From UHGV virus genome UHGV-1709880: a stretch of 10,367 bases of DNA. One strand, 5' to 3'. Each line of letters starts with the position of its first letter. The first letter of the stretch is position 1. This DNA comes from a virus. The position numbers and the translations under genes are program-made. Below the pieces are notes generated by a model, which ran no database searches, was not told where the DNA came from, and was given only the letters and a program-made list of their open reading frames with translations. Shown in pieces: positions 1 to 10,272 of the stretch.

Positions 1-210
1 ACAACGCGCGGCGCTCTTTACTCGTTCGTCTACAACGTGGGTGCTGGCAATTTCAGAACATCGACGCTTCTTCGCAAAATAAACCAGGGTGATATTAAAG
101 GCGCATGTGATCAGCTACGGCGCTGGACATACGCTGGCGGTAATCAATGGAAAGGACTGATGACTCGCCGTGAGATTGAGCGTGAAGTCTGTTTGTGGGG
201 GAAACAATGA
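1..210 (+). CDS. 19: Endolysin, phage lysozyme (GH24, T4 e / P22 gp19 type); 5'-truncated by the window edge, C-terminal ~69 aa present
   Basis: Frame 1 is open from position 1 to TGA at 208-210 and translates to ...[63 protein letters not shown], which I recognise as the conserved C-terminus of P22-type lysozyme. The stop overlaps the downstream Rz start (ATGA), as is typical of lysis cassettes. Confidence 0.85.
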
Positions 211-665
211 GCAGAGTAACCGCGATTATCTCCGCTCTGGTTATCTGCATCATCGTCTGCCTGTCATTGGCTGTTAATCATTACCGTGATAACGCAATCG
301 CCTACAAAGAGCAGCGCGATAACAAGGCCAGTGAACTGGAGAAGGCGAACGCCACCATCGCTGACATGCGGAAGCGTCAACGTGATGTAGCAGAACTCGA
401 CGCAAGATACACAAAGGAGCTTGCTGATGCTAACGCGACTATCGAAAGTCTCCGTGCTGATGTTTCTGCTGGGCGTAAGCGCCTGCAAGTCGCCGCCACC
501 TGTGCAAAGTCAACGACCGGAGCCAGCGGCATGGGCGATGGAGAAAGCCCAAGACTTACAGCAGATGCTGAACTCAATTATTACCGTCTCCGAAGTGGAA
601 TCGACAGAATAACCGCGCAGGTTAACTACCTGCAGGAATACATCAGGACGCAATGCCTTCGATGA
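207..665 (+). CDS. rz: Rz i-spanin (inner-membrane spanin subunit), 152 aa
   Basis: ATG at 207 gives [93 protein letters not shown]...: an N-terminal transmembrane helix followed by a coiled-coil periplasmic domain, closely resembling lambda/P22 Rz. The ORF track begins at GTG 195, but the ATG at 207 matches the family N-terminus (MSRVTAI...). Confidence 0.9.
427..612 (+). CDS. rz1: Rz1 o-spanin (outer-membrane lipoprotein spanin subunit), embedded in the +1 frame of rz
   Basis: A strong RBS (AAGGAG at 414-419) sits 7 nt before ATG 427. Translation [46 protein letters not shown]... has a lipoprotein signal with lipobox VSAC and a proline-rich mature region, the hallmark of Rz1. It lies entirely inside rz in a different frame, the classic embedded spanin architecture. 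Confidence 0.8.
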
Positions 666-1007: not shown

Positions 1008-1532
1008 ATGAATAATCATTCAGTTATTCCAGCCTTCGACTTCCGAGAAATGGTGCAAGCCAAAAACGGAGAGGTCGTTACCACATCCAGAAAAATTGCC
1101 AAGTACTTCGGCAAGCGACACGGTGATGTTCTCAGGAAAATCGAGCAGGTTAAGGCTGATTGCTCGCGTGAGTTTAGCCAACGCAATTTTGCGTCGGCTG
1201 ATTATATCGATGAGCAGGGCAAGGTTCGCCCGATGTACAGCCTGACGAAAGATGGCTGGATCATGGTTGTGATGGGGTTCACCGGGAAAGCTGCTGCGGC
1301 AATCAAGGAGAGCTATATCGCAGCATTCAACTGGATGGCAGAGCAACTGAGCCGCCGCATGGCAATTGGCGAAGAAATGCAGCACCGCTACGCCATCAAA
1401 GAAACACGCTCAAAGCTGAAAGGTACGATCGGCAGTCGGTTAATGAACGAACGGAAGAAAGAGAAGCGTGTCCTGGCTGTCGAGCATGAATACATCTTGC
1501 AGGTGACGCAGCCCGAATTGCTGATTAATTGA
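1008..1532 (+). CDS. rha: Rha-family phage regulatory protein (Phage_pRha-like N-terminal domain), 174 aa
   Basis: First ATG in the open frame, preceded by AAAAGG. Translation MNNHSVIPAFDFREMVQAKNGEVVTTSRKIAKYFGKRHGDVLRKIEQVKADCSREFSQRNFASADYIDEQGKVRPMYSLTKDGWIMVVMGF... carries the characteristic Rha motif (TSR.IA..FGKRH.DVLR.I). Its position between lysis and terminase genes matches the rha slot (orf201) of P22-like phages. The upstream extension of the ORF (765-1007) has no ATG and contains the terminator hairpin. Confidence 0.75.
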   Translation: MNNHSVIPAFDFREMVQAKNGEVVTTSRKIAKYFGKRHGDVLRKIEQVKADCSREFSQRNFASADYIDEQGKVRPMYSLTKDGWIMVVMGFTGKAAAAIKESYIAAFNWMAEQLSRRMAIGEEMQHRYAIKETRSKLKGTIGSRLMNERKKEKRVLAVEHEYILQVTQPELLIN

Positions 1533-1762: not shown

Positions 1763-2134
1763 ATGAACGACCAGCAAATCGAAAAAGAAATCGTTGAGAA
1801 AGGCAAAACGGCACCGCGAGTTACGCCAGACCATATCGAAGGAATTATTGCTCAGGAGGCATATTTCACAGCAGAGGATGGTGCCTTTGGCAAAGCCATA
1901 AAAGAGAAACATACTGGCGGAGAGGTAAACTACCAGCCGCACGAATCACTTTCTCTGCTGACGTTCTGCGTCCTGGTGCTGCGCAACGGCTTCACCGTCA
2001 CCGGAGAGAGTGCCTGTGCAAGTCCGGAAAATTTTGATGCAGAAATTGGTCGGAAGATTGCCCGGCAGAATGCTGTAAACAAAATCTGGATGCTCGAAGG
2101 TTACTTGCTGAAGCAGAAGCTAAGCGAACAGTAG
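1763..2134 (+). CDS. Hypothetical phage protein, 123 aa; possibly Gp49/Sf6-Gp66-like family (unverified)
   Basis: ATG 1763 with AGGG about 9 nt upstream. Translation MNDQQIEKEIVEKGKTAPRVTPDHIEGIIAQEAYFTAEDGAFGKAIKEKHTGGEVNYQPHESLSLLTFCVLVLRNGFTVTGESACASPENFDAEIGRKIARQNAVNKIWMLEGYLLKQKLSEQ. Same strand and operon context as the flanking phage genes. The family assignment is from memory of small phage proteins found between lysis and terminase genes, not from a search. Confidence 0.6.
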   Translation: MNDQQIEKEIVEKGKTAPRVTPDHIEGIIAQEAYFTAEDGAFGKAIKEKHTGGEVNYQPHESLSLLTFCVLVLRNGFTVTGESACASPENFDAEIGRKIARQNAVNKIWMLEGYLLKQKLSEQ

Positions 2135-2190: not shown

Positions 2191-2216
2191 GGGATAACTT
2201 AACTGATATCCCTTTT
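2191..2216 (+). terminator. Weak terminator-like hairpin upstream of the 80-aa ORF
   Basis: GGGATA (2191-2196) / TATCCC (2207-2212), 10-nt loop, then TTTT (2213-2216). Confidence 0.25.
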
Positions 2217-2237
2217 AACGGATAAACGGAGCCAACA

Positions 2238-2480
2238 ATGGCAGAGATTATTCCCATGACTGAAGAACAGAAATTCCAGTTAGAGATTTACAAGCTGGTC
2301 ATGAACCAGAACGCAGCCGCAGAAGAAGCATTTCAGTTCATTGGTACTGACGAGCTGAAGCTTGAGCTATTCAAAATTCACTTCCAGTCAGGCGGCGCTA
2401 ATTCAGATATCACGACCCGCACTATCGAAGCGGTGCGTAAATCGAAGGAAGCGTTAGACCTGTTCACCGCTGGAGTGTGA
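2238..2480 (+). CDS. Hypothetical small acidic protein, 80 aa (size and position resemble orf80 of P22-like phages)
   Basis: ATG 2238 with GGAG about 8 nt upstream. Translation MAEIIPMTEEQKFQLEIYKLVMNQNAAAEEAFQFIGTDELKLELFKIHFQSGGANSDITTRTIEAVRKSKEALDLFTAGV. Stop TGA at 2478-2480 is 1 nt from the next ATG (2482), implying translational coupling. Confidence 0.6.
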   Translation: MAEIIPMTEEQKFQLEIYKLVMNQNAAAEEAFQFIGTDELKLELFKIHFQSGGANSDITTRTIEAVRKSKEALDLFTAGV

Positions 2481-2481
2481 T

Positions 2482-2871
2482 ATGGCTAAGGCCAAATGGC
2501 ACAAACTCCCGGCGTTCACCATTCCGCTGTTTCAAAGTGCACACGTCTACCTCGCAACAACCAGAGAACAGTTTCAGCACGCTGATAAATTCCTTGGCGG
2601 CAGCGGGGATGAGAAGCCATTCAATCTTGGGCTTGCAAGCAGCTATGAAAACACTGATACGGGTGAGCGATGCTATCTGATTGGAGTATTCGATCAGCAG
2701 ATCGCTACGCTCGTTCATGAGTGCGCCCACGTCTGCTTTTACGTTTGCTCTGATGTCGGCGTGACGACAAGGCCTGAAGATGCCAACGAGACGTACTGTT
2801 ACATGCTGGACAGGATGGTTAATCACTTCCTGCCATTCATTCAGGAGAAACAAGATGCATCACTGGAATAA
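2482..2871 (+). CDS. Hypothetical protein with HExxH motif (possible zinc metallopeptidase-like fold), 129 aa
   Basis: ATG 2482 with GGAG upstream, coupled to the preceding ORF. Translation MAKAKWHKLPAFTIPLFQSAHVYLATTREQFQHADKFLGGSGDEKPFNLGLASSYENTDTGERCYLIGVFDQQIATLVHECAHVCFYVCSDVGVTTRPEDANETYCYMLDRMVNHFLPFIQEKQDASLE. HECAH is at residues 79-83 (nt 2716-2730). The equal-length antisense ORF 2464..2853 has no RBS and no operon logic, so I call the + strand. Confidence 0.6.
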   Translation: MAKAKWHKLPAFTIPLFQSAHVYLATTREQFQHADKFLGGSGDEKPFNLGLASSYENTDTGERCYLIGVFDQQIATLVHECAHVCFYVCSDVGVTTRPEDANETYCYMLDRMVNHFLPFIQEKQDASLE

Positions 2872-3049
2872 TCAATCCCCTTATTGCCAATGCCAACGCT
2901 GCCCGTGCTGCGGGAAGATTGTTAACCAATTTACTGGCAACAATTTCTTCAAGACTGGTTATGGATATGGTGTTGCGGGTAGCATTAATTGCTCTGGGGC
3001 TGCTGCTGAAACGACATCAAACACAGGCAAGCAGGAAGGAGCTAAGTAA
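2855..3049 (+). CDS. Candidate Cys-rich micro-protein, 64 aa (possible zinc-ribbon); uncertain
   Basis: Strong RBS CAGGAGAAACAAG immediately before ATG 2855. Translation MHHWNNQSPYCQCQRCPCCGKIVNQFTGNNFFKTGYGYGVAGSINCSGAAAETTSNTGKQEGAK has two closely spaced Cys pairs (C..C x2 C.CC). Overlaps the 3' end of the HExxH ORF by 17 nt. An alternative hydrophobic ORF 2919..3110 in another frame cannot be excluded. Confidence 0.3.
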   Translation: MHHWNNQSPYCQCQRCPCCGKIVNQFTGNNFFKTGYGYGVAGSINCSGAAAETTSNTGKQEGAK

Positions 3050-3143
3050 TGGTAATCAACGTTTGTTCAGGCTCTCAGGGCTTCGACAACCCATCCAAAT
3101 TCCGCGATGAATGGGATAAGCAAGCAGAAGGGAAATAATCAAT

Positions 3144-3632
3144 ATGGCAGCACCAAAGGGCAACCGATTTTGGGAGGCCCGCAGTAGTCATGGGCGAAAT
3201 CCTAAATTCGAATCGCCTGAGGCGCTGTGGGCTGCTTGTTGTGAATACTTCGAGTGGGCTGATGATAACCCGTTATGGGAGGGTAAGGTATTTTCATATC
3301 AGGGAGAAATAATTAAGGCTAATGTCCCTAAGATGCGAGCCATGACTATTTCAGGATTGTGTACCTTCCTTGATATCACCAGGCAAACATGGGGAACCTT
3401 CCGGTCAATGGAAGGTTTTTCTGACGTCACATCACGAGCGGAAGACATCATCTACGACCAGAAATTCTCTGGCGCAGCCGCTGACCTTCTCAACGCTAAC
3501 ATCATCGCCCGTGATTTGGGCCTCAAAGAGCAGTCGCAAGTTGAAGACGTGACACCTGATAAGGGAGATCGCGATAAGCGACGCTCTCGTATCAAGGAGC
3601 TATTCAACCGTGGAACTGGACGCGATTCTTGA
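3144..3632 (+). CDS. 3: Terminase small subunit (TerS), P22 gp3-like, 162 aa
   Basis: ATG 3144, RBS GAAGGG upstream. Translation [38 protein letters not shown]...[49 protein letters not shown]. Recognised as the P22-type small terminase by length, termini and position immediately upstream of the large terminase. Confidence 0.88.
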
Positions 3633-5109
3633 TAACCTGAGCGACGAAGAGCAAATCGAATTGCTCGAGCTACTCGAAGAAGAAGAAAACTACCGGAACA
3701 CACACCTGCTATATGAATTTACGCCATACAGCAAACAGCGTGAGTTCATCGACGCCGGGCATGACTATCCAGAGCGATGTTTTATGGCTGGTAACCAGCT
3801 TGGTAAGTCATTTACTGGTGCTGCTGAAGTCGCGTTTCACCTTACCGGGCGTTATCCGGGCACAAAAGGCTATCCTGCTGATGGTAAATATGGCGGTGAG
3901 TGGAAAGGTAAGCGTTTCTATGAGCCTGTTGTCTTCTGGATTGGCGGCGAGACAAACGAGACTGTAACCAAAACGACTCAACGCATCCTGTGCGGTCGTA
4001 TCGAAGAGAATGATGAACCTGGCTACGGTTCCATACCGAAAGAAGACATCATTAGCTGGAAGAAGTCTCCTTTCTTTCCGAACCTTGTTGATCATCTTCT
4101 GGTTAAGCATCACACGGCTGATGGCGTTGAAGATGGCATTTCAATCTGCTACTTCAAGCCATACTCGCAAGGCCGTGCTCGCTGGCAGGGTGACACAATC
4201 CACGGCGTGTGGTTTGACGAAGAGCCACCATACAGCATTTATGGTGAAGGTCTTACACGTACCAACAAATACGGGCAATTCTCAATTCTGACGTTTACCC
4301 CGCTGATGGGGATGTCTGACGTTGTTACCAAGTTCCTGAAGAATCCCAGCAAGTCGCAGAAAGTGGTCAACATGACCATCTATGACGCTGAGCACTACAC
4401 CGACGAGCAGAAAGAGCAAATCATCGCATCCTATCCTGAGCATGAGAGAGAGGCGCGTGCTCGCGGTATTCCTACGATGGGTAGCGGGAGAATCTTCCAG
4501 ATACCGGAAGAGACGATTAAGTGTCAGCCGTTCGAGTGCCCTGATCACTTCTACGTAATTGGCGGGATGGATTTCGGATGGGATCACCCACAGGCGCAGG
4601 TTCAGCTTTGGTGGGATAAGGACGCAGACACAATCTACGTTTCACGCGTGTGGAAGGCGAAAGAAAAAACAGCCGTTCAGGCATGGGGAGCCGTTAAATC
4701 ATGGGCGCATAAAGTGCCAACCGCATGGCCTCATGACGGAAACCAGCATGAGAAGGGCGGCGGTGAGCAGCTCAAAGGGCAGTATGCCGACGCTGGTTTT
4801 ATGATGTTGCAGGAGCATGCGACATGGCCTGATGGCGGTAACGCTGTTGAGCCTGGCATCACTGAATTGCGAGACATGATGCTCGACGGTCGCTTCAAAG
4901 TATTCAACACCTGTGAGCCATTCTTTGAGGAGTTCCGCCTCTATCACCGTGATGAAAACGGGAAAATCGTCAAGCTTAACGACGACGTGCTATCCGCCGT
5001 TCGCTATGCATACATGATGCGCCGCTTCGCAAAAATGATGCGCGACATCAAAAAGCCAAAAGAGAAAAAGATACCAGCCCCAATCAGGCCCATCGCACGG
5101 AGAACTTAA
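3610..5109 (+). CDS. 2: Terminase large subunit (TerL; ATPase/nuclease), P22 gp2-like, 499 aa
   Basis: GTG start at 3610 (AAGGAG at 3592-3597), overlapping the terS 3' end by 23 nt. Translation [37 protein letters not shown]...[16 protein letters not shown] (Walker A-like GKS) ... VWFDEEPP (Walker B-like DEE) ... C-terminal nuclease region. Size and sequence match P22 gp2. Confidence 0.95.
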
Positions 5110-7275
5110 ATGGCCGACGAAAACAGACTCAATTCCATTCTGTGTAAGTTTGACGCAGACTGGATGGCGAGCGATGAAGCCAGAACCGAGGCGACAAATG
5201 ACCTGTATTTTAGCCGAGTGTCGCAATGGGATGACTGGCTATCAAACTACACCACCCTGCAATATCGCGGACAATTCGATGTTGTCCGCCCGGTGGTCAG
5301 GAAGTTGGTCGCAGAGATGCGCCGGAACCCTATCGACGTTCTCTTCCGACCAAAAGACGGTGCTAATCCTGATGCAGCCGATGTGTTGATGGGGATGTAT
5401 CGTACTGATATGCGCCATAACACGGCAAAAATTGCCGTTAACATTGGCGTTCGTGAGCAGATAGAGTCCGGCGTTGGTGCATGGCGTCTGGTCACGCAGT
5501 ACGAAGACAACGATCCAACAAGCAACAATCAGGTAATTCGACGCCTGCCAATTCATGAAGCCTGCTCACACGTCATATGGGACGCCAACAGCAAGCAGAT
5601 GGATAAGAGCGACGCTAAGCACTGCACGGTGATTAACGCCTTGTCGCGCAATGGCTGGAAAGAGTTTGCAGAGGATTACGGTATTGATCCGGACACCTTG
5701 CCATCTTTCCAGAATCCGAACGATACATGGCTGTTTCCGTGGGTATCGAATGATGTCGTCTACGTCGCTGAGTATTACGAGGTCGAAGAGAAGAAAGAGA
5801 AAGTCTTCATCTACCGCGACCCGCTGACAGGTGAGCCGGTAAGCTATTACCAGCAGGATATCAAAGACGTCATCGACGACCTGGCTAATCGTGGATTCAT
5901 TAAGGTAGCAGAGCGCAAGGTGAAGCGTCGGCGTGTGTATAAGTCGATCATCACCTGTACGCAGATACTGAAAGACCGCGAGAAGATAGCCGGAGAGCAT
6001 ATTCCAATCGTTCCAGTGTATGGTGAATGGTCATTCGCTGGTGACAAGGAGTGCTACGAAGGAGTGGTAAGGCTGACGAAAGACGGTCAACGCCTTCGTA
6101 ACATGATCATGTCGTTCAACGCCGATATTGTTGCTCGTTCACCGAAGAAGAAACCGACCTTCTTCCCTGAGCAAATCGAAGGCTACGAATACATGTACGG
6201 TGGAAATGATGACTATCCGTACTATCTGCAGAACAGGACCGATGAAAACGGTAACGACCTGCCGATTGGTCCAATCTCCTACATGGAAAACCCTGAAGTG
6301 CCGCAAGCCAACGCTTACATGCTTGAGGCTGCCACCAACGCAGTGAAAGAGGTGGCTAGTCTTGGCGTGGATGCGCAGGCAGCAAACTCTCAGGTCGCTT
6401 TCGATACTGTCAATCAACTGAACATGCGAGCAGACCTTGAGACATATGTGTTTCAGGATAACCTGGCTACCGCAATGCGACGTGATGGCGAGATTTATGC
6501 CTCAATGGTCAACGATATTTATGACGTTCCTCGTCATGTAACGCTGACACTTGAAGATGGTAGCGAGAAAGACGTTCAACTCTACGCGCAAGTTGTCGAT
6601 TACCAGTCCGGTAATGTGGTCACACTCAACGACATTCGCGGTCGCTATGAGTGCTATACAGACGTTGGACCATCCTTCCAGAGTATGAAGGAACAGAACC
6701 GCGCAGAGATTCAGGAGTTACTCACCAAGGTTCCACAAGGTACTCCAGAGTTCCAGATGCTGATGCTGCAATACTTCACGCTGCTTGATGGTAAAGGCGT
6801 CGAGATGATGCGAGAGTACGCGAACAAGCAACTGGTGATGATGGGGCTGAAGAAACCAGAAACACCTGAAGAGATGGAGATGGTACAGCAGGCTCAACAG
6901 CAGCCGCAGCAGCCATCAGCAGAGCAAATTCAGGCGCAGGGTATCCTTCTGCAAGGTCAGGCTGAATTGCTCAAGGCAGAGAACCAACAGGCGCAGATTC
7001 AGGTTGAAGCCGCCAAGGTTGAAGCCCAAAACCAACTCAACGCCGCGAAGATTGCGGAAATCTTCAACAATATGGACCTCGACAAGCAGGCAGAACTGCG
7101 TGAGTACCTCAAGCTCGTAGGTCAATTCCAGCAACAGCGCAGCAAAGATGCTCGTGCTAACGCTGAGCTGCTTCTTAAAGATGCAGACCAGACTCATTCA
7201 CAACGCATGGATTTCGCGAATCTTATGCGTCAAGTTCAAATCCCCTCCGGCGGAGTAGCCGAGACACCTCAATAA
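5110..7275 (+). CDS. 1: Portal protein, P22 gp1-like, 721 aa
   Basis: ATG 5110 directly abuts the terL stop (TAAATG). Translation [66 protein letters not shown]... with a long glutamine-rich coiled-coil C-terminal barrel region (...[65 protein letters not shown]...), as in the P22 portal. Confidence 0.95.
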
Positions 7276-8200: not shown

Positions 8201-9495
8201 TGGCATTAAATGAAGGTCAACTGGTCACGTATGCTCTGGATGAAATCATCGAAACCGTCCAGAACCTGACGCCAATGGCGTCCAAAGTGACAAAATACAC
8301 CCCTCCGGCAGAATCCATGCAGCGTTCAAGCAACACCGTGTGGATGCCTGTTGAGCAGGAAGCGCCAACCCAGACTGGCTGGGATTTAACTGGCAAGGCA
8401 ACCGGGATTCTGGAGCTTTCCGTGAAATGCAACATGGGCGATCCGGATAACGATTTCTTCGAGCTTCGTGCAGATGACCTGCGTGATGAGCGTTCTTACC
8501 GTCGCCGCATCCAGGCATCCGCCAAAAAACTGGCGAATAACATTGAGTCAGCGATTGCCAAACAGGCAACTGAAATGGGCTCGCTTGTTGTTCACGATAC
8601 CCGCGCAATTGGTCCATCTACTGGCCTGTCTGGCTGGGATTTTGTGTCTGATGCAGAGCGCCTGATGTTCTCCAGAGAACTCAACCGCGACATGGGCATC
8701 AGTTACTTCCTGAACCCTGACGATTACCGCAAAGCAGGCCGTAACCTGGTAGATGGTGACATCTTCGGTCGCGTTCCTGAAGAAGCGTATCGCAACGGTA
8801 CTATTCAGCGTCAGATTGCTGGCTTTGATGAAATTCTTCGCTCACCGAAACTTCCGGCAGTTACCAAGTCAACCGCTACTGGTGTAACTGTTTCTGGTGC
8901 GCAGAAGTTTAAGCCGCAGGCATACACCCTTGATACCGATGGTAACAAAGAGAACGTCGACAACCGTGTTGCAACGGTGACCGTATCTTCCACCACCGGA
9001 TTTAAGCGCGGCGACAAAATCAGCTTCACTGGTGTGAAATTCCTGTCTCAGATGGCGAAGAACGTGCTGACTGATGATGCTACTTTCTCAATCACCCGTG
9101 TGATCGATGATACTCACATCGAAATCACGCCGAAACCGATTGCACTGGATGACGCTTCACTGACAAAAGAAGAGAAGGCTTACGCTAACGTAAACACATC
9201 TCTTGCTAATACCACTCCGGTAAACGTTCTGAACGTGGCAACAGCCACCGCTAACGTGTTCTGGGCTGATGACTCAATCCGCCTGCTATCTCAGCCGATC
9301 CCGGTAACCCATGAACTGTTTGCTGGCATGAAAACGTCTTCCTTCAGCATTCCTGGTATTGGTGTTAACGGCATCTTCGCAACGCAGGGTGATATCAACA
9401 CTCTGTCTGGTAAGTGCCGTATTGCTGTGTGGTATTCAGCATGTGCTGTACGACCAGAGGCAATTGGTGTTGGTCTGCCTAACCAGACTGCGTGA
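8200..9495 (+). CDS. 5: Major capsid (coat) protein, P22 gp5-like (HK97 fold with insertion domain), 431 aa
   Basis: ATG 8200. Translation [97 protein letters not shown]...[14 protein letters not shown]. Recognised as P22-type coat protein by sequence, length and gene order. Confidence 0.93.
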
Positions 9496-9502
9496 TAACC
9501 AG

Positions 9503-9526
9503 AGGGAGCTTCGGCTCCCTTTTTTA
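9503..9526 (+). terminator. Intrinsic terminator / attenuator immediately downstream of the coat gene
   Basis: Perfect hairpin GGGAGC (9504-9509) - UUCG tetraloop - GCUCCC (9514-9519), followed by TTTTTT (9520-9525); begins 8 nt after the coat stop. Confidence 0.7.
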
Positions 9527-9539
9527 TCTGGAGACAAAC

Positions 9540-9771
<232 letters not shown>

Positions 9772-9794
<23 letters not shown>

Positions 9795-10272
9795 TTTAGT
9801 TCTTGCGGCATTACGTAAGCTCGGCGTGGCATCAAATGCCACGTTAACCGATGTCGAACCGCAGTCTATGGAAGACGGCATCAACGACCTTGAAATGATG
9901 ATGGCTGAATGGCTTGGCGGTGATGCGTCACCTGGTATCAACGTTGGCTACATTTTTGCTGATGCAGATGTTGCTCCGGATCCGGGCGATGAGCACGGTT
10001 TATCAAATAACGCTATCAATGCCGTCATTTTCAACCTTGCCTGCCGCATTGCTCCGGATTATGCGCTGGAAGCGTCAGCAAAACTTATAACTACTGCCAG
10101 ATACGGGAAAGAGCGACTCGTCAAACTGTCTGCAATGGACAGAGCAAAAGCCGCTAAATGTAAGTCCGGTTATCCAAACCGTATGCCTGTTGGTAGCGGT
10201 AACCAGTTGGCGAAGTGGAATGGTTGGAATTACTTCCACCGAAAGGAACCTTGCGATAACGGGAGCGAATAA
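9772..10272 (+). CDS. 4: Tail adaptor / head-completion protein, P22 gp4-like, 166 aa
   Basis: ATG 9772. Translation [50 protein letters not shown]...[53 protein letters not shown]... matches the gp4 N-terminus and length. The ORF track's longer version from ATG 9679 reads through the repeat as SQSQSQ and is not supported. Confidence 0.85.

Follow-up and report, generated by a model that had tools for sequence, protein, structure and literature searches.

A putative minimal gluzincin-type metallopeptidase of the HkcC/Orf129 family in the late region of a P22-like Escherichia coli prophage

The 129-residue protein and its HExxH motif

We analyzed a stretch of 10,367 nucleotides (nt) from the virus genome UHGV-1709880, in the following called the window, which covers the late region of a P22-like (Lederbergvirus/Sf6-type) Escherichia coli prophage. 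The subject of this work is a gene for a protein of 129 amino acids (aa) on the late-operon strand, after the lysis genes and before the small terminase gene. The protein belongs to the HkcC/Orf129 family. As judged from its motifs and a predicted structure, it is probably a cytoplasmic, stand-alone zinc metallopeptidase of the gluzincin type that consists of a single domain of ~120 residues (a 'minimal zincin') and is encoded by a late accessory gene. E. coli VCSW5 contains a prophage with 99.6% identity to nt 2200–3150 of the window. The Prokaryotic Genome Annotation Pipeline (PGAP) names the product there 'hypothetical protein', as it is called in the NCBI pipeline annotation of E. coli prophages, and its neighbors 'DUF2560 family protein' and 'DNA-packaging protein'. 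For the coordinates of all features see Table 1.

The open reading frame (ORF) starts with ATG and is separated by a single nucleotide from the TGA stop codon (2478–2480) of an upstream gene for an 80-aa protein. Both products are acidic, with an isoelectric point (pI) of 5.2 and a net charge of about -7 for the 129-aa protein, and a pI of 4.7 and a net charge of about -5 for the 80-aa protein. The longer protein contains the sequence HECAH at residues 79–83, within the hydrophobic stretch IATLVHECAHVCFYV, and further cysteine and histidine residues at positions 85, 89 and 106 (Cys) and 115 (His). Apart from the acidity of the longer protein, these features had been listed in an earlier, model-generated reading of the DNA (the first-pass annotation), and all of them can be read in the sequence. 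The gene is under purifying selection, with a median ratio of nonsynonymous to synonymous substitution rates (dN/dS) of 0.10 for 88 allele pairs. It is a real and constrained gene.

An HExxH pattern occurs in 1.6% of composition-preserving shuffles of the 129-aa protein and in none of the 10 other proteins of the window. Its presence in one sequence is thus only mildly improbable and would count for little if taken alone. We compared the protein with 46 close homologues and, in a broad alignment, with 120 representatives of 25–50% identity to the query. The motif is not a product of chance, because His79, Glu80 and His83 are invariant in both sets. The close alignment contains 18 invariant columns. 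In the broad alignment only four are left, namely His79, Glu80, His83 and Glu103. The HExxH motif proposed in the first-pass annotation is indeed a genuine, family-wide motif that no homologue in either set has lost.

Glu103 follows the second histidine with 18 or 19 intervening residues in 106 of the 120 representatives (HExxH-x18/19-E), and it is directly preceded by an asparagine (Asn102) in 69. Such a spacing, combined with an 'NE' context, marks gluzincins, for example thermolysin (M4) and the M1 aminopeptidases. Nearly invariant positions are Gly50 (119/120), Tyr107 (116/120) and Gly93 (109/120), followed by Phe70 and Thr76 (107/120 each), Pro15 (106/120) and Cys106 (103/120). Among the additional cysteine and histidine residues to which the first-pass annotation had drawn attention, Cys106 stands out, being present in 86% of the family and missing from 14%. 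The others, however, are not conserved across the 120 representatives (Cys85 in 16, Cys89 in 37, likewise His115) and are therefore not general metal ligands. A conserved histidine on the C-terminal side of His83 was not found in the same alignment. A metzincin motif (HExxHxxGxxH) with Cys89 in the place of the third histidine was considered and rejected: position 86 is Phe in 83 of the 120 sequences, and position 89 is Leu or Cys.

Structure prediction with AlphaFold2, employing the 46-sequence alignment, resulted in a model with a predicted local distance difference test score (pLDDT) of 87 and a predicted template modeling score (pTM) of 0.81. The model comprises two strands (residues 11–13 and 21–25), a helix (28–37), two further strands (50–56 and 63–69), a helix with the HExxH motif (74–91) and a long C-terminal helix (103–128) that starts with Glu103. 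The resulting order is β-β-α-β-β-α(HExxH)-α(Glu103). In zincins the catalytic core is built up from a sheet, a backing helix, two more strands, the active-site helix and the glutamate helix, and the predicted topology is compatible with this arrangement. In the model the family-wide HExxH motif is part of a helix and the invariant Glu103 is located at the N-terminus of the next one, as would be expected for a gluzincin. The zincin-type assignment of the first-pass annotation is thus supported at the level of prediction by the HExxH helix, by the invariant glutamate 19 residues further on and by weak profile matches, all of them to metallopeptidases.

With thermolysin and the M1 aminopeptidases the family has in common the invariant HExxH, a glutamate 18–19 residues on, the 'NE' context and the order of elements. 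It differs from the gluzincins of known structure in the lack of a significant sequence or structure match and in its single long C-terminal helix with no further subdomain; the conservation of Cys106 and Tyr107 beside the glutamate sets the HkcC/Orf129 family apart as well. The minigluzincins proabylysin and projannalysin are of a size similar to that of the 129-aa protein.

Searches of the PDB sequences with phmmer and with a profile of the close homologues yielded nothing meaningful. The profile built from 120 sequences gave nine matches, all of them metallopeptidases. The best one was myroilysin (E = 0.005), aligned over residues 5–110 with helix A, the edge strands and the HExxH helix in register; the others were an M35 peptidase and astacins. 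A search of the predicted viral structures in BFVD resulted in 29 matches with E < 1e-3. Phage proteins account for all of these matches, most of them unnamed; the names given to the rest are SprT-like, PolyVal metallopeptidase, Metalloprotease and IrrE. A match to an aKG-HExxH hydroxylase domain of NCBIfam (18 bits, cutoff 40) spanned 30 residues around the motif and was rejected as motif-only.

Among the Pfam models, the SprT-like family (PF10263; SprT, Wss1 and Spartan), which also consists of small proteins, was nearest to the 129-aa protein, with 12.7 bits against a cutoff of 25.6 and E = 0.12 for residues 73–91 only. It was the sole recurrent weak Pfam match of the family (31 of 120 members, best E = 1e-4); DUF4344, M50B, M48 and M78 were matched weakly by one to four of the 120 members each. 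A protease similar to SprT, Wss1 or Spartan, one of the folds suggested by the first-pass annotation, could clear phage DNA of bound or cross-linked proteins ahead of, or in the course of, replication and headful packaging. The occurrence of terminase genes next to the homologue in several phage lineages, a lysine-rich C-terminal tail in the mEp021-type homologues and one homologue named SprT-like by a metagenome pipeline would be in line with such a role. Wss1 and Spartan have also been grouped with the minigluzincins (PMC4559962). The window protein, however, aligns with the SprT-like profile below threshold and by its HExxH helix alone, its predicted third ligand is a glutamate, it is acidic, and it contains neither a zinc ribbon nor a DNA-binding domain. 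SprT-like enzymes such as Wss1 and Spartan combine HExxH with a histidine as the third ligand, which has no conserved counterpart here. In addition, the paralogue in P22 (see below) is located away from the terminase genes. We did not adopt the SprT-like assignment and regard a function of this kind as distinctly unlikely.

Family, neighboring genes and position in the late operon

In the PHROGs database the 129-aa protein corresponds to phrog_1365, annotated as 'unknown function' (E = 1.6e-37 over residues 1–126). The same entry is matched by HkcC of P22 (E = 7.8e-40) and by all 120 aligned representatives. A tblastn search of phage genomes yielded 92 records with a homologue. The window protein is 60–62% identical to Orf129 of phages L and ST64T, ORF47 of ST104, gp70 of epsilon34 and gp66 of g341c, 43–45% identical to the homologues of mEp021-like coliphages and 34% identical to the product of a P22 ORF known from HK620 as hkcC. 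HkcC of P22 and HK620 and Orf129 of L and ST64T are homologous to it over the full length, agree with it in length and in the HExxH...NE motif, and match phrog_1365 with E-values of ~1e-37 to 1e-40. Orf129 of ST64T and L is also encoded in the corresponding slot, with the lysis genes on one side and gene 3 on the other. It differs in sequence (~60% identity only) and in being followed by dec instead of the small cysteine-rich ORF described below. HkcC, in turn, belongs to the 'ant moron', where it lies between sieA and mnt.

The P22 homologue encodes 125 aa and is located at 13849–14223 of BK000583 (2501–2875 in our locus L084). The gene has no coding-sequence annotation in BK000583 and NC_002371; its ends coincide in part with the sieA promoter and the mnt terminator annotated there.

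A HMMER search of 1.84 billion cluster representatives found 311 members with E < 1e-3, nearly all of 110–160 residues. The family comprises at least 311 sequence clusters (50% identity) in phages of Enterobacterales, Pseudomonas, Ralstonia and others, with homologues in virulent N4-like and crAss-like phages as well. A scan for related loci seeded with one distant homologue returned 2 loci only. HkcC/Orf129 is an already catalogued, uncharacterized phage family whose members are probably enzymes of a known kind. The family is large, has no Pfam entry and is experimentally untouched.

Within E. coli the gene is rare, being present in 29 of 5426 complete genomes (0.5%). Several phages contain two paralogues per genome (SE1, ST160, Phi75, UAB_Phi20, ST-35, ST-29, ST-32 and SW-70), and ST-87 contains three. 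In several Salmonella P22-like phages the paralogues are divergent (~38% identical), with one copy in the slot between the lysis and terminase genes and one beside the sieA and immI region. The 129-aa gene is an optional, freely exchangeable accessory gene and forms a mosaic module of its own.

The 80-aa protein encoded upstream belongs to the DUF2560 family and corresponds to gp67 of Sf6. A model predicted from its single sequence is all-helical and of low confidence (pLDDT 57). The ST64T protein 'Orf-118' is another member, annotated with a longer N-terminus. The 1-nt spacing makes a translational coupling of the 129-aa gene to the DUF2560 gene plausible, as the first-pass annotation had pointed out. 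That annotation had also viewed the two proteins as partners. They might form a two-component unit in which DUF2560 is an inhibitor, a chaperone or a substrate, or they might resemble a toxin/antidote pair. We analyzed 83 loci with a homologue of the 129-aa gene. DUF2560 is located directly upstream in 49 of them, with a gap of 1–3 nt, and directly downstream in six, with a gap of 2 nt, so that the genes are adjacent in 55 loci in one order or the other. The position of the Shine-Dalgarno sequence within the coding end of DUF2560 would fit a functional unit, as would the P0031-type phages, in which DUF2560 is one gene away from the homologue.

DUF2560 is, however, absent within 5 kb in about 26 of the 83 loci, and it is by far the more common gene, with 177 versus 92 phage records and about 1000 E. 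coli genomes matching its slot versus 29. In P22, ORF80 occupies the slot between the lysis and terminase genes, whereas the HkcC paralogue is ~9 kb away. Even where both genes are present their alleles reassort. The pairwise identities of the two proteins correlate only with r = 0.21; DUF2560 group 0 adjoins groups 0 and 2 of the 129-aa family, and group 2 of the latter adjoins DUF2560 groups 0, 1, 4 and 5. One DUF2560 allele is found beside alleles of the 129-aa gene that are only ~60% identical to each other, and the converse is also seen. In the window, nucleotide similarity to Sf6 and P22-type phages ends at 2467–2476, i.e. at the end of DUF2560, which places a mosaic junction precisely at the boundary of the two genes. 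The small neighbors of distant homologues are unrelated; no small downstream partner is shared among these homologues. Since the slot holds only 1–4 genes, frequent adjacency is expected by chance. Each gene thus occurs alone and the two do not covary. The proposed partnership holds as far as frequent neighborhood is concerned, but the pairing is not obligate, and DUF2560 should not be treated as an obligate partner. We consider a two-component unit unlikely and found no positive evidence for the toxin/antidote and anti-repressor roles that had been suggested for the pair.

On its other side the 129-aa gene overlaps by 17 nt with a candidate ORF that would encode a cysteine-rich protein of 64 aa with the sequence MHHWNNQSPYCQCQRCPCCGK... 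and a CxCQRCPCCGK motif. An AGGAG Shine-Dalgarno sequence is located 7 nt upstream of its start. Sixteen related loci have the ORF in intact form, among them two whose flanks are divergent (87.5% identical), and dN/dS is 0.24 in its frame versus 0.5 and 1.2 out of frame. In one further locus (L044) the motif region recurs with 47% identity, there following DUF2560. PGAP leaves the ORF without annotation, and no match was found in Pfam, PHROGs or the phage collection. No other module shares the 200 bp that follow the 129-aa gene, and the sequence becomes similar to other phages again ~70 bp ahead of gene 3. The small ORF travels with this allele of the 129-aa gene as one mosaic module.

The first-pass annotation had placed the gene in a moron slot. 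A moron would be expected to have a flanking promoter and terminator of its own. Between nt 2200 and 3144 (+), however, neither a σ70-like promoter nor an intrinsic terminator was detected in a crude consensus scan, in which the counts equaled those of shuffled sequence. In phages L and ST64T the gene order is DUF2560, orf129, dec and gene 3. We identified Orf-134 of ST64T (2890–3294 of locus L002), directly 3' of Orf129, as a member of the Dec head-decoration family (phrog_3018, E = 8.7e-59). Dec is a late virion protein, and the slot can therefore carry late virion genes. It is better described as a variable slot within the late operon than as a moron slot. The position just upstream of the packaging genes recurs in P22-like phages with other terminase types, in P0031-type phages and in mEp021-like phages; a homologue of 27% identity is flanked by a ribonucleotide reductase gene on one side and by presumptive terminase and portal genes on the other. 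In P22, hkcC is on the late strand, and sieA, orf59a and mnt run in the opposite direction. A late position is not universal, since other homologues are found among the small early genes of the N4-like phage KP8 or after replication genes. In the window, the location inside the late operon and the lack of a separate promoter or terminator suggest that the 129-aa protein is made late in lytic growth.

The gp49/66-family gene and DUF2560 are separated by 103 nt, in which two hairpins (2133–2178 and 2191–2216, +) were observed. The former has a long, near-perfect stem; the latter (GGGATA...TATCCC) precedes a TTTT run. The folding energy of the two together is -29.8 kcal/mol (z = -3.9 versus shuffles). 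Near the 129-aa gene, hairpins are found upstream of DUF2560 only. They could be a terminator-like or mosaic-junction element.

The genomic position also bears on two functions in lysogeny. One is a prophage-expressed exclusion or abortive-infection protease, or another defense moron of the lysogen. A prophage-borne HExxH protease is known in Lit, and an optional gene in a variable slot, with a P22 paralogue beside the sieA and immI region, would suit a similar function. The missing promoter- and terminator-like sites and the late-operon strand at both genomic positions argue against it. So do the occurrence of homologues in virulent N4-like and crAss-like phages and a PADLOC search that gave no match for the 129-aa protein, and we judge this explanation to be very doubtful.

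The other is an anti-repressor, i.e. a protease of the ImmA/IrrE type (M78) that cleaves a repressor, as implied by the second fold named in the first-pass annotation. ImmA/IrrE proteins are likewise small metalloproteases encoded by phages and mobile elements, and the combination of HExxH with a downstream glutamate is that of the M78 peptidases. The P22 paralogue adjoins the mnt/arc/ant region, and a gene for a Rha regulator lies ~1 kb upstream in the window. The M78 model (PF06114), however, was matched by only one of the 120 members with E ~0.1, and the window protein itself has no M78 profile match. In none of the contexts examined did we find an adjacent gene for a helix-turn-helix (HTH) or XRE-type repressor, and in most phages the gene is part of the late operon and not of the immunity region. 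Membership in this family was not borne out, and a repressor-cleaving function is highly improbable.

Proposed mechanism and biological role

Based on the invariant residues and the predicted structure we propose the following model for the 129-aa protein. Translation would restart at, or be coupled to, the stop codon of the upstream DUF2560 gene. In the folded protein, His79 and His83 from the active-site helix and Glu103 from the start of the next helix would hold one Zn2+ ion, and Glu80 would activate a zinc-bound water molecule. Tyr107, and possibly Cys106, located one helical turn past Glu103, would be positioned beside the metal. The strands formed by residues 50–56 and 63–69 would provide the substrate-binding edge of the sheet.

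Some points weigh against this interpretation of the gene. A Foldseek search of the PDB with the model yielded nothing with E < 1e-3, and no Pfam or NCBIfam model reached its cutoff for the 129-aa protein. The conservation of Cys106 could mean that it is a fourth ligand which closes the metal site, so that the protein would be non-catalytic or would exist in a latent form similar to a cysteine switch. The timing of synthesis, most likely late in lytic growth, is deduced from gene position alone. In the literature we found no functional study of the HkcC/Orf129 family; the sole statement is that of the epsilon34 genome paper (PMC2629481), in which hkcC is listed with unknown function.

The first and third of these points also bear on a metal-binding protein that is not a protease. 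In such a protein His79, His83, Glu103 and Cys106 would form a closed structural site, or the HExxH motif would serve another chemistry. Cys106 is only one turn away from Glu103, no solved peptidase gave a significant structural match, and the weak hydroxylase match described above might be read in the same direction. A purely structural site, however, would not need Glu80, which is as invariant as the ligands; moreover, 14% of the family manage without Cys106, and the hydroxylase match is confined to the surroundings of the motif. A non-proteolytic function therefore appears very improbable to us, and the zinc peptidase remains the preferred interpretation. We consider the annotation 'putative zinc metallopeptidase (HExxH...E)' to be supported.

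Regarding the substrate of the predicted peptidase, the gene is optional in E. coli, mosaic and present as divergent paralogues, and a host or competitor protein is therefore a likelier substrate than a core component of the virion. P22-like phages need no head protease. As a guess only, the likeliest role would be in counter-defense or host takeover, and an accessory, sometimes duplicated gene beside the packaging genes is a plausible candidate for counter-defense. A more specific version is unlikely to hold in full: a hitherto unclassified family of minimal gluzincins, used by many temperate and virulent phages, would act late in counter-defense or host takeover, for instance by cleaving a host immune sensor that responds to late phage proteins such as the terminase or portal, the paralogues within a genome would have different targets, and DUF2560 or the 64-aa ORF would encode a regulator or substrate.

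Since the early 2000s this gene has been labeled 'unknown' in P22, HK620, L, ST64T and epsilon34. If its product is an active protease, the gene would gain a function, and the protein would also be among the smallest self-contained zincin catalytic units. To our knowledge, phage-encoded proteases acting on host proteins are few.

Other features of the window

Table 1. Features of the window in the region of the 129-aa gene and downstream of it.
Feature	Position (nt)	Strand	Remarks
Rz-type lysis gene	195–665	+	
Rha	1008–1532	+	Rha domain match begins at ATG 1008
N4 gp49 / Sf6 gp66-family protein	1763–2134	+	PF13876
DUF2560 protein (80 aa)	2238–2480	+	PF10834, E = 1.1e-43; phrog_571; 97.5% identical to P22 ORF80
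GGAG Shine-Dalgarno sequence of the 129-aa gene	2472–2475	+	6 nt 5' of ATG, within the last codons of the upstream gene; read directly
129-aa protein, HkcC/Orf129 family (PHROG 1365), predicted minimal gluzincin-type zinc metallopeptidase	2482–2871	+	ORF; phrog_1365
Codons of His79-Glu80-Cys81-Ala82-His83	2716–2730	+	two predicted zinc ligands and general-base Glu, in the predicted active-site helix 74–91
Codons of Asn102-Glu103-Thr104-Tyr105-Cys106-Tyr107	2785–2802	+	Glu103 is the predicted third zinc ligand at the start of helix 103–128
Cys106, Tyr107			one turn beyond Glu103 on the predicted 'glutamate helix'
Candidate unannotated 64-aa Cys-rich ORF	2855–3049	+	Shine-Dalgarno sequence, in-frame dN/dS, intact in relatives
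gp3-type small terminase	3144–3632	+	
Large terminase	3610–5109	+	
P22-type portal	5110–7275	+	
Scaffold and coat	downstream of portal	+	

A search of the window against Rfam gave no match. The longest ORF of the Rha gene starts with TTG at 765 (765–1532, +), and the Rha domain match covers only the part from ATG 1008 onwards. Just past the Rz gene, a terminator-like hairpin with a T-run is located at 840–859. The gp49/66-family protein has a near-identical copy in Escherichia phage Huey, where it is labeled 'anti-CRISPR protein'. Downstream of the coat gene we observed a perfect hexanucleotide repeat, CAGAGC x 6.7, at 9685–9724. It is translated as (SQ)n in an ORF at 9679–10272 and as (EP)n in an overlapping ORF at 9492–9794.

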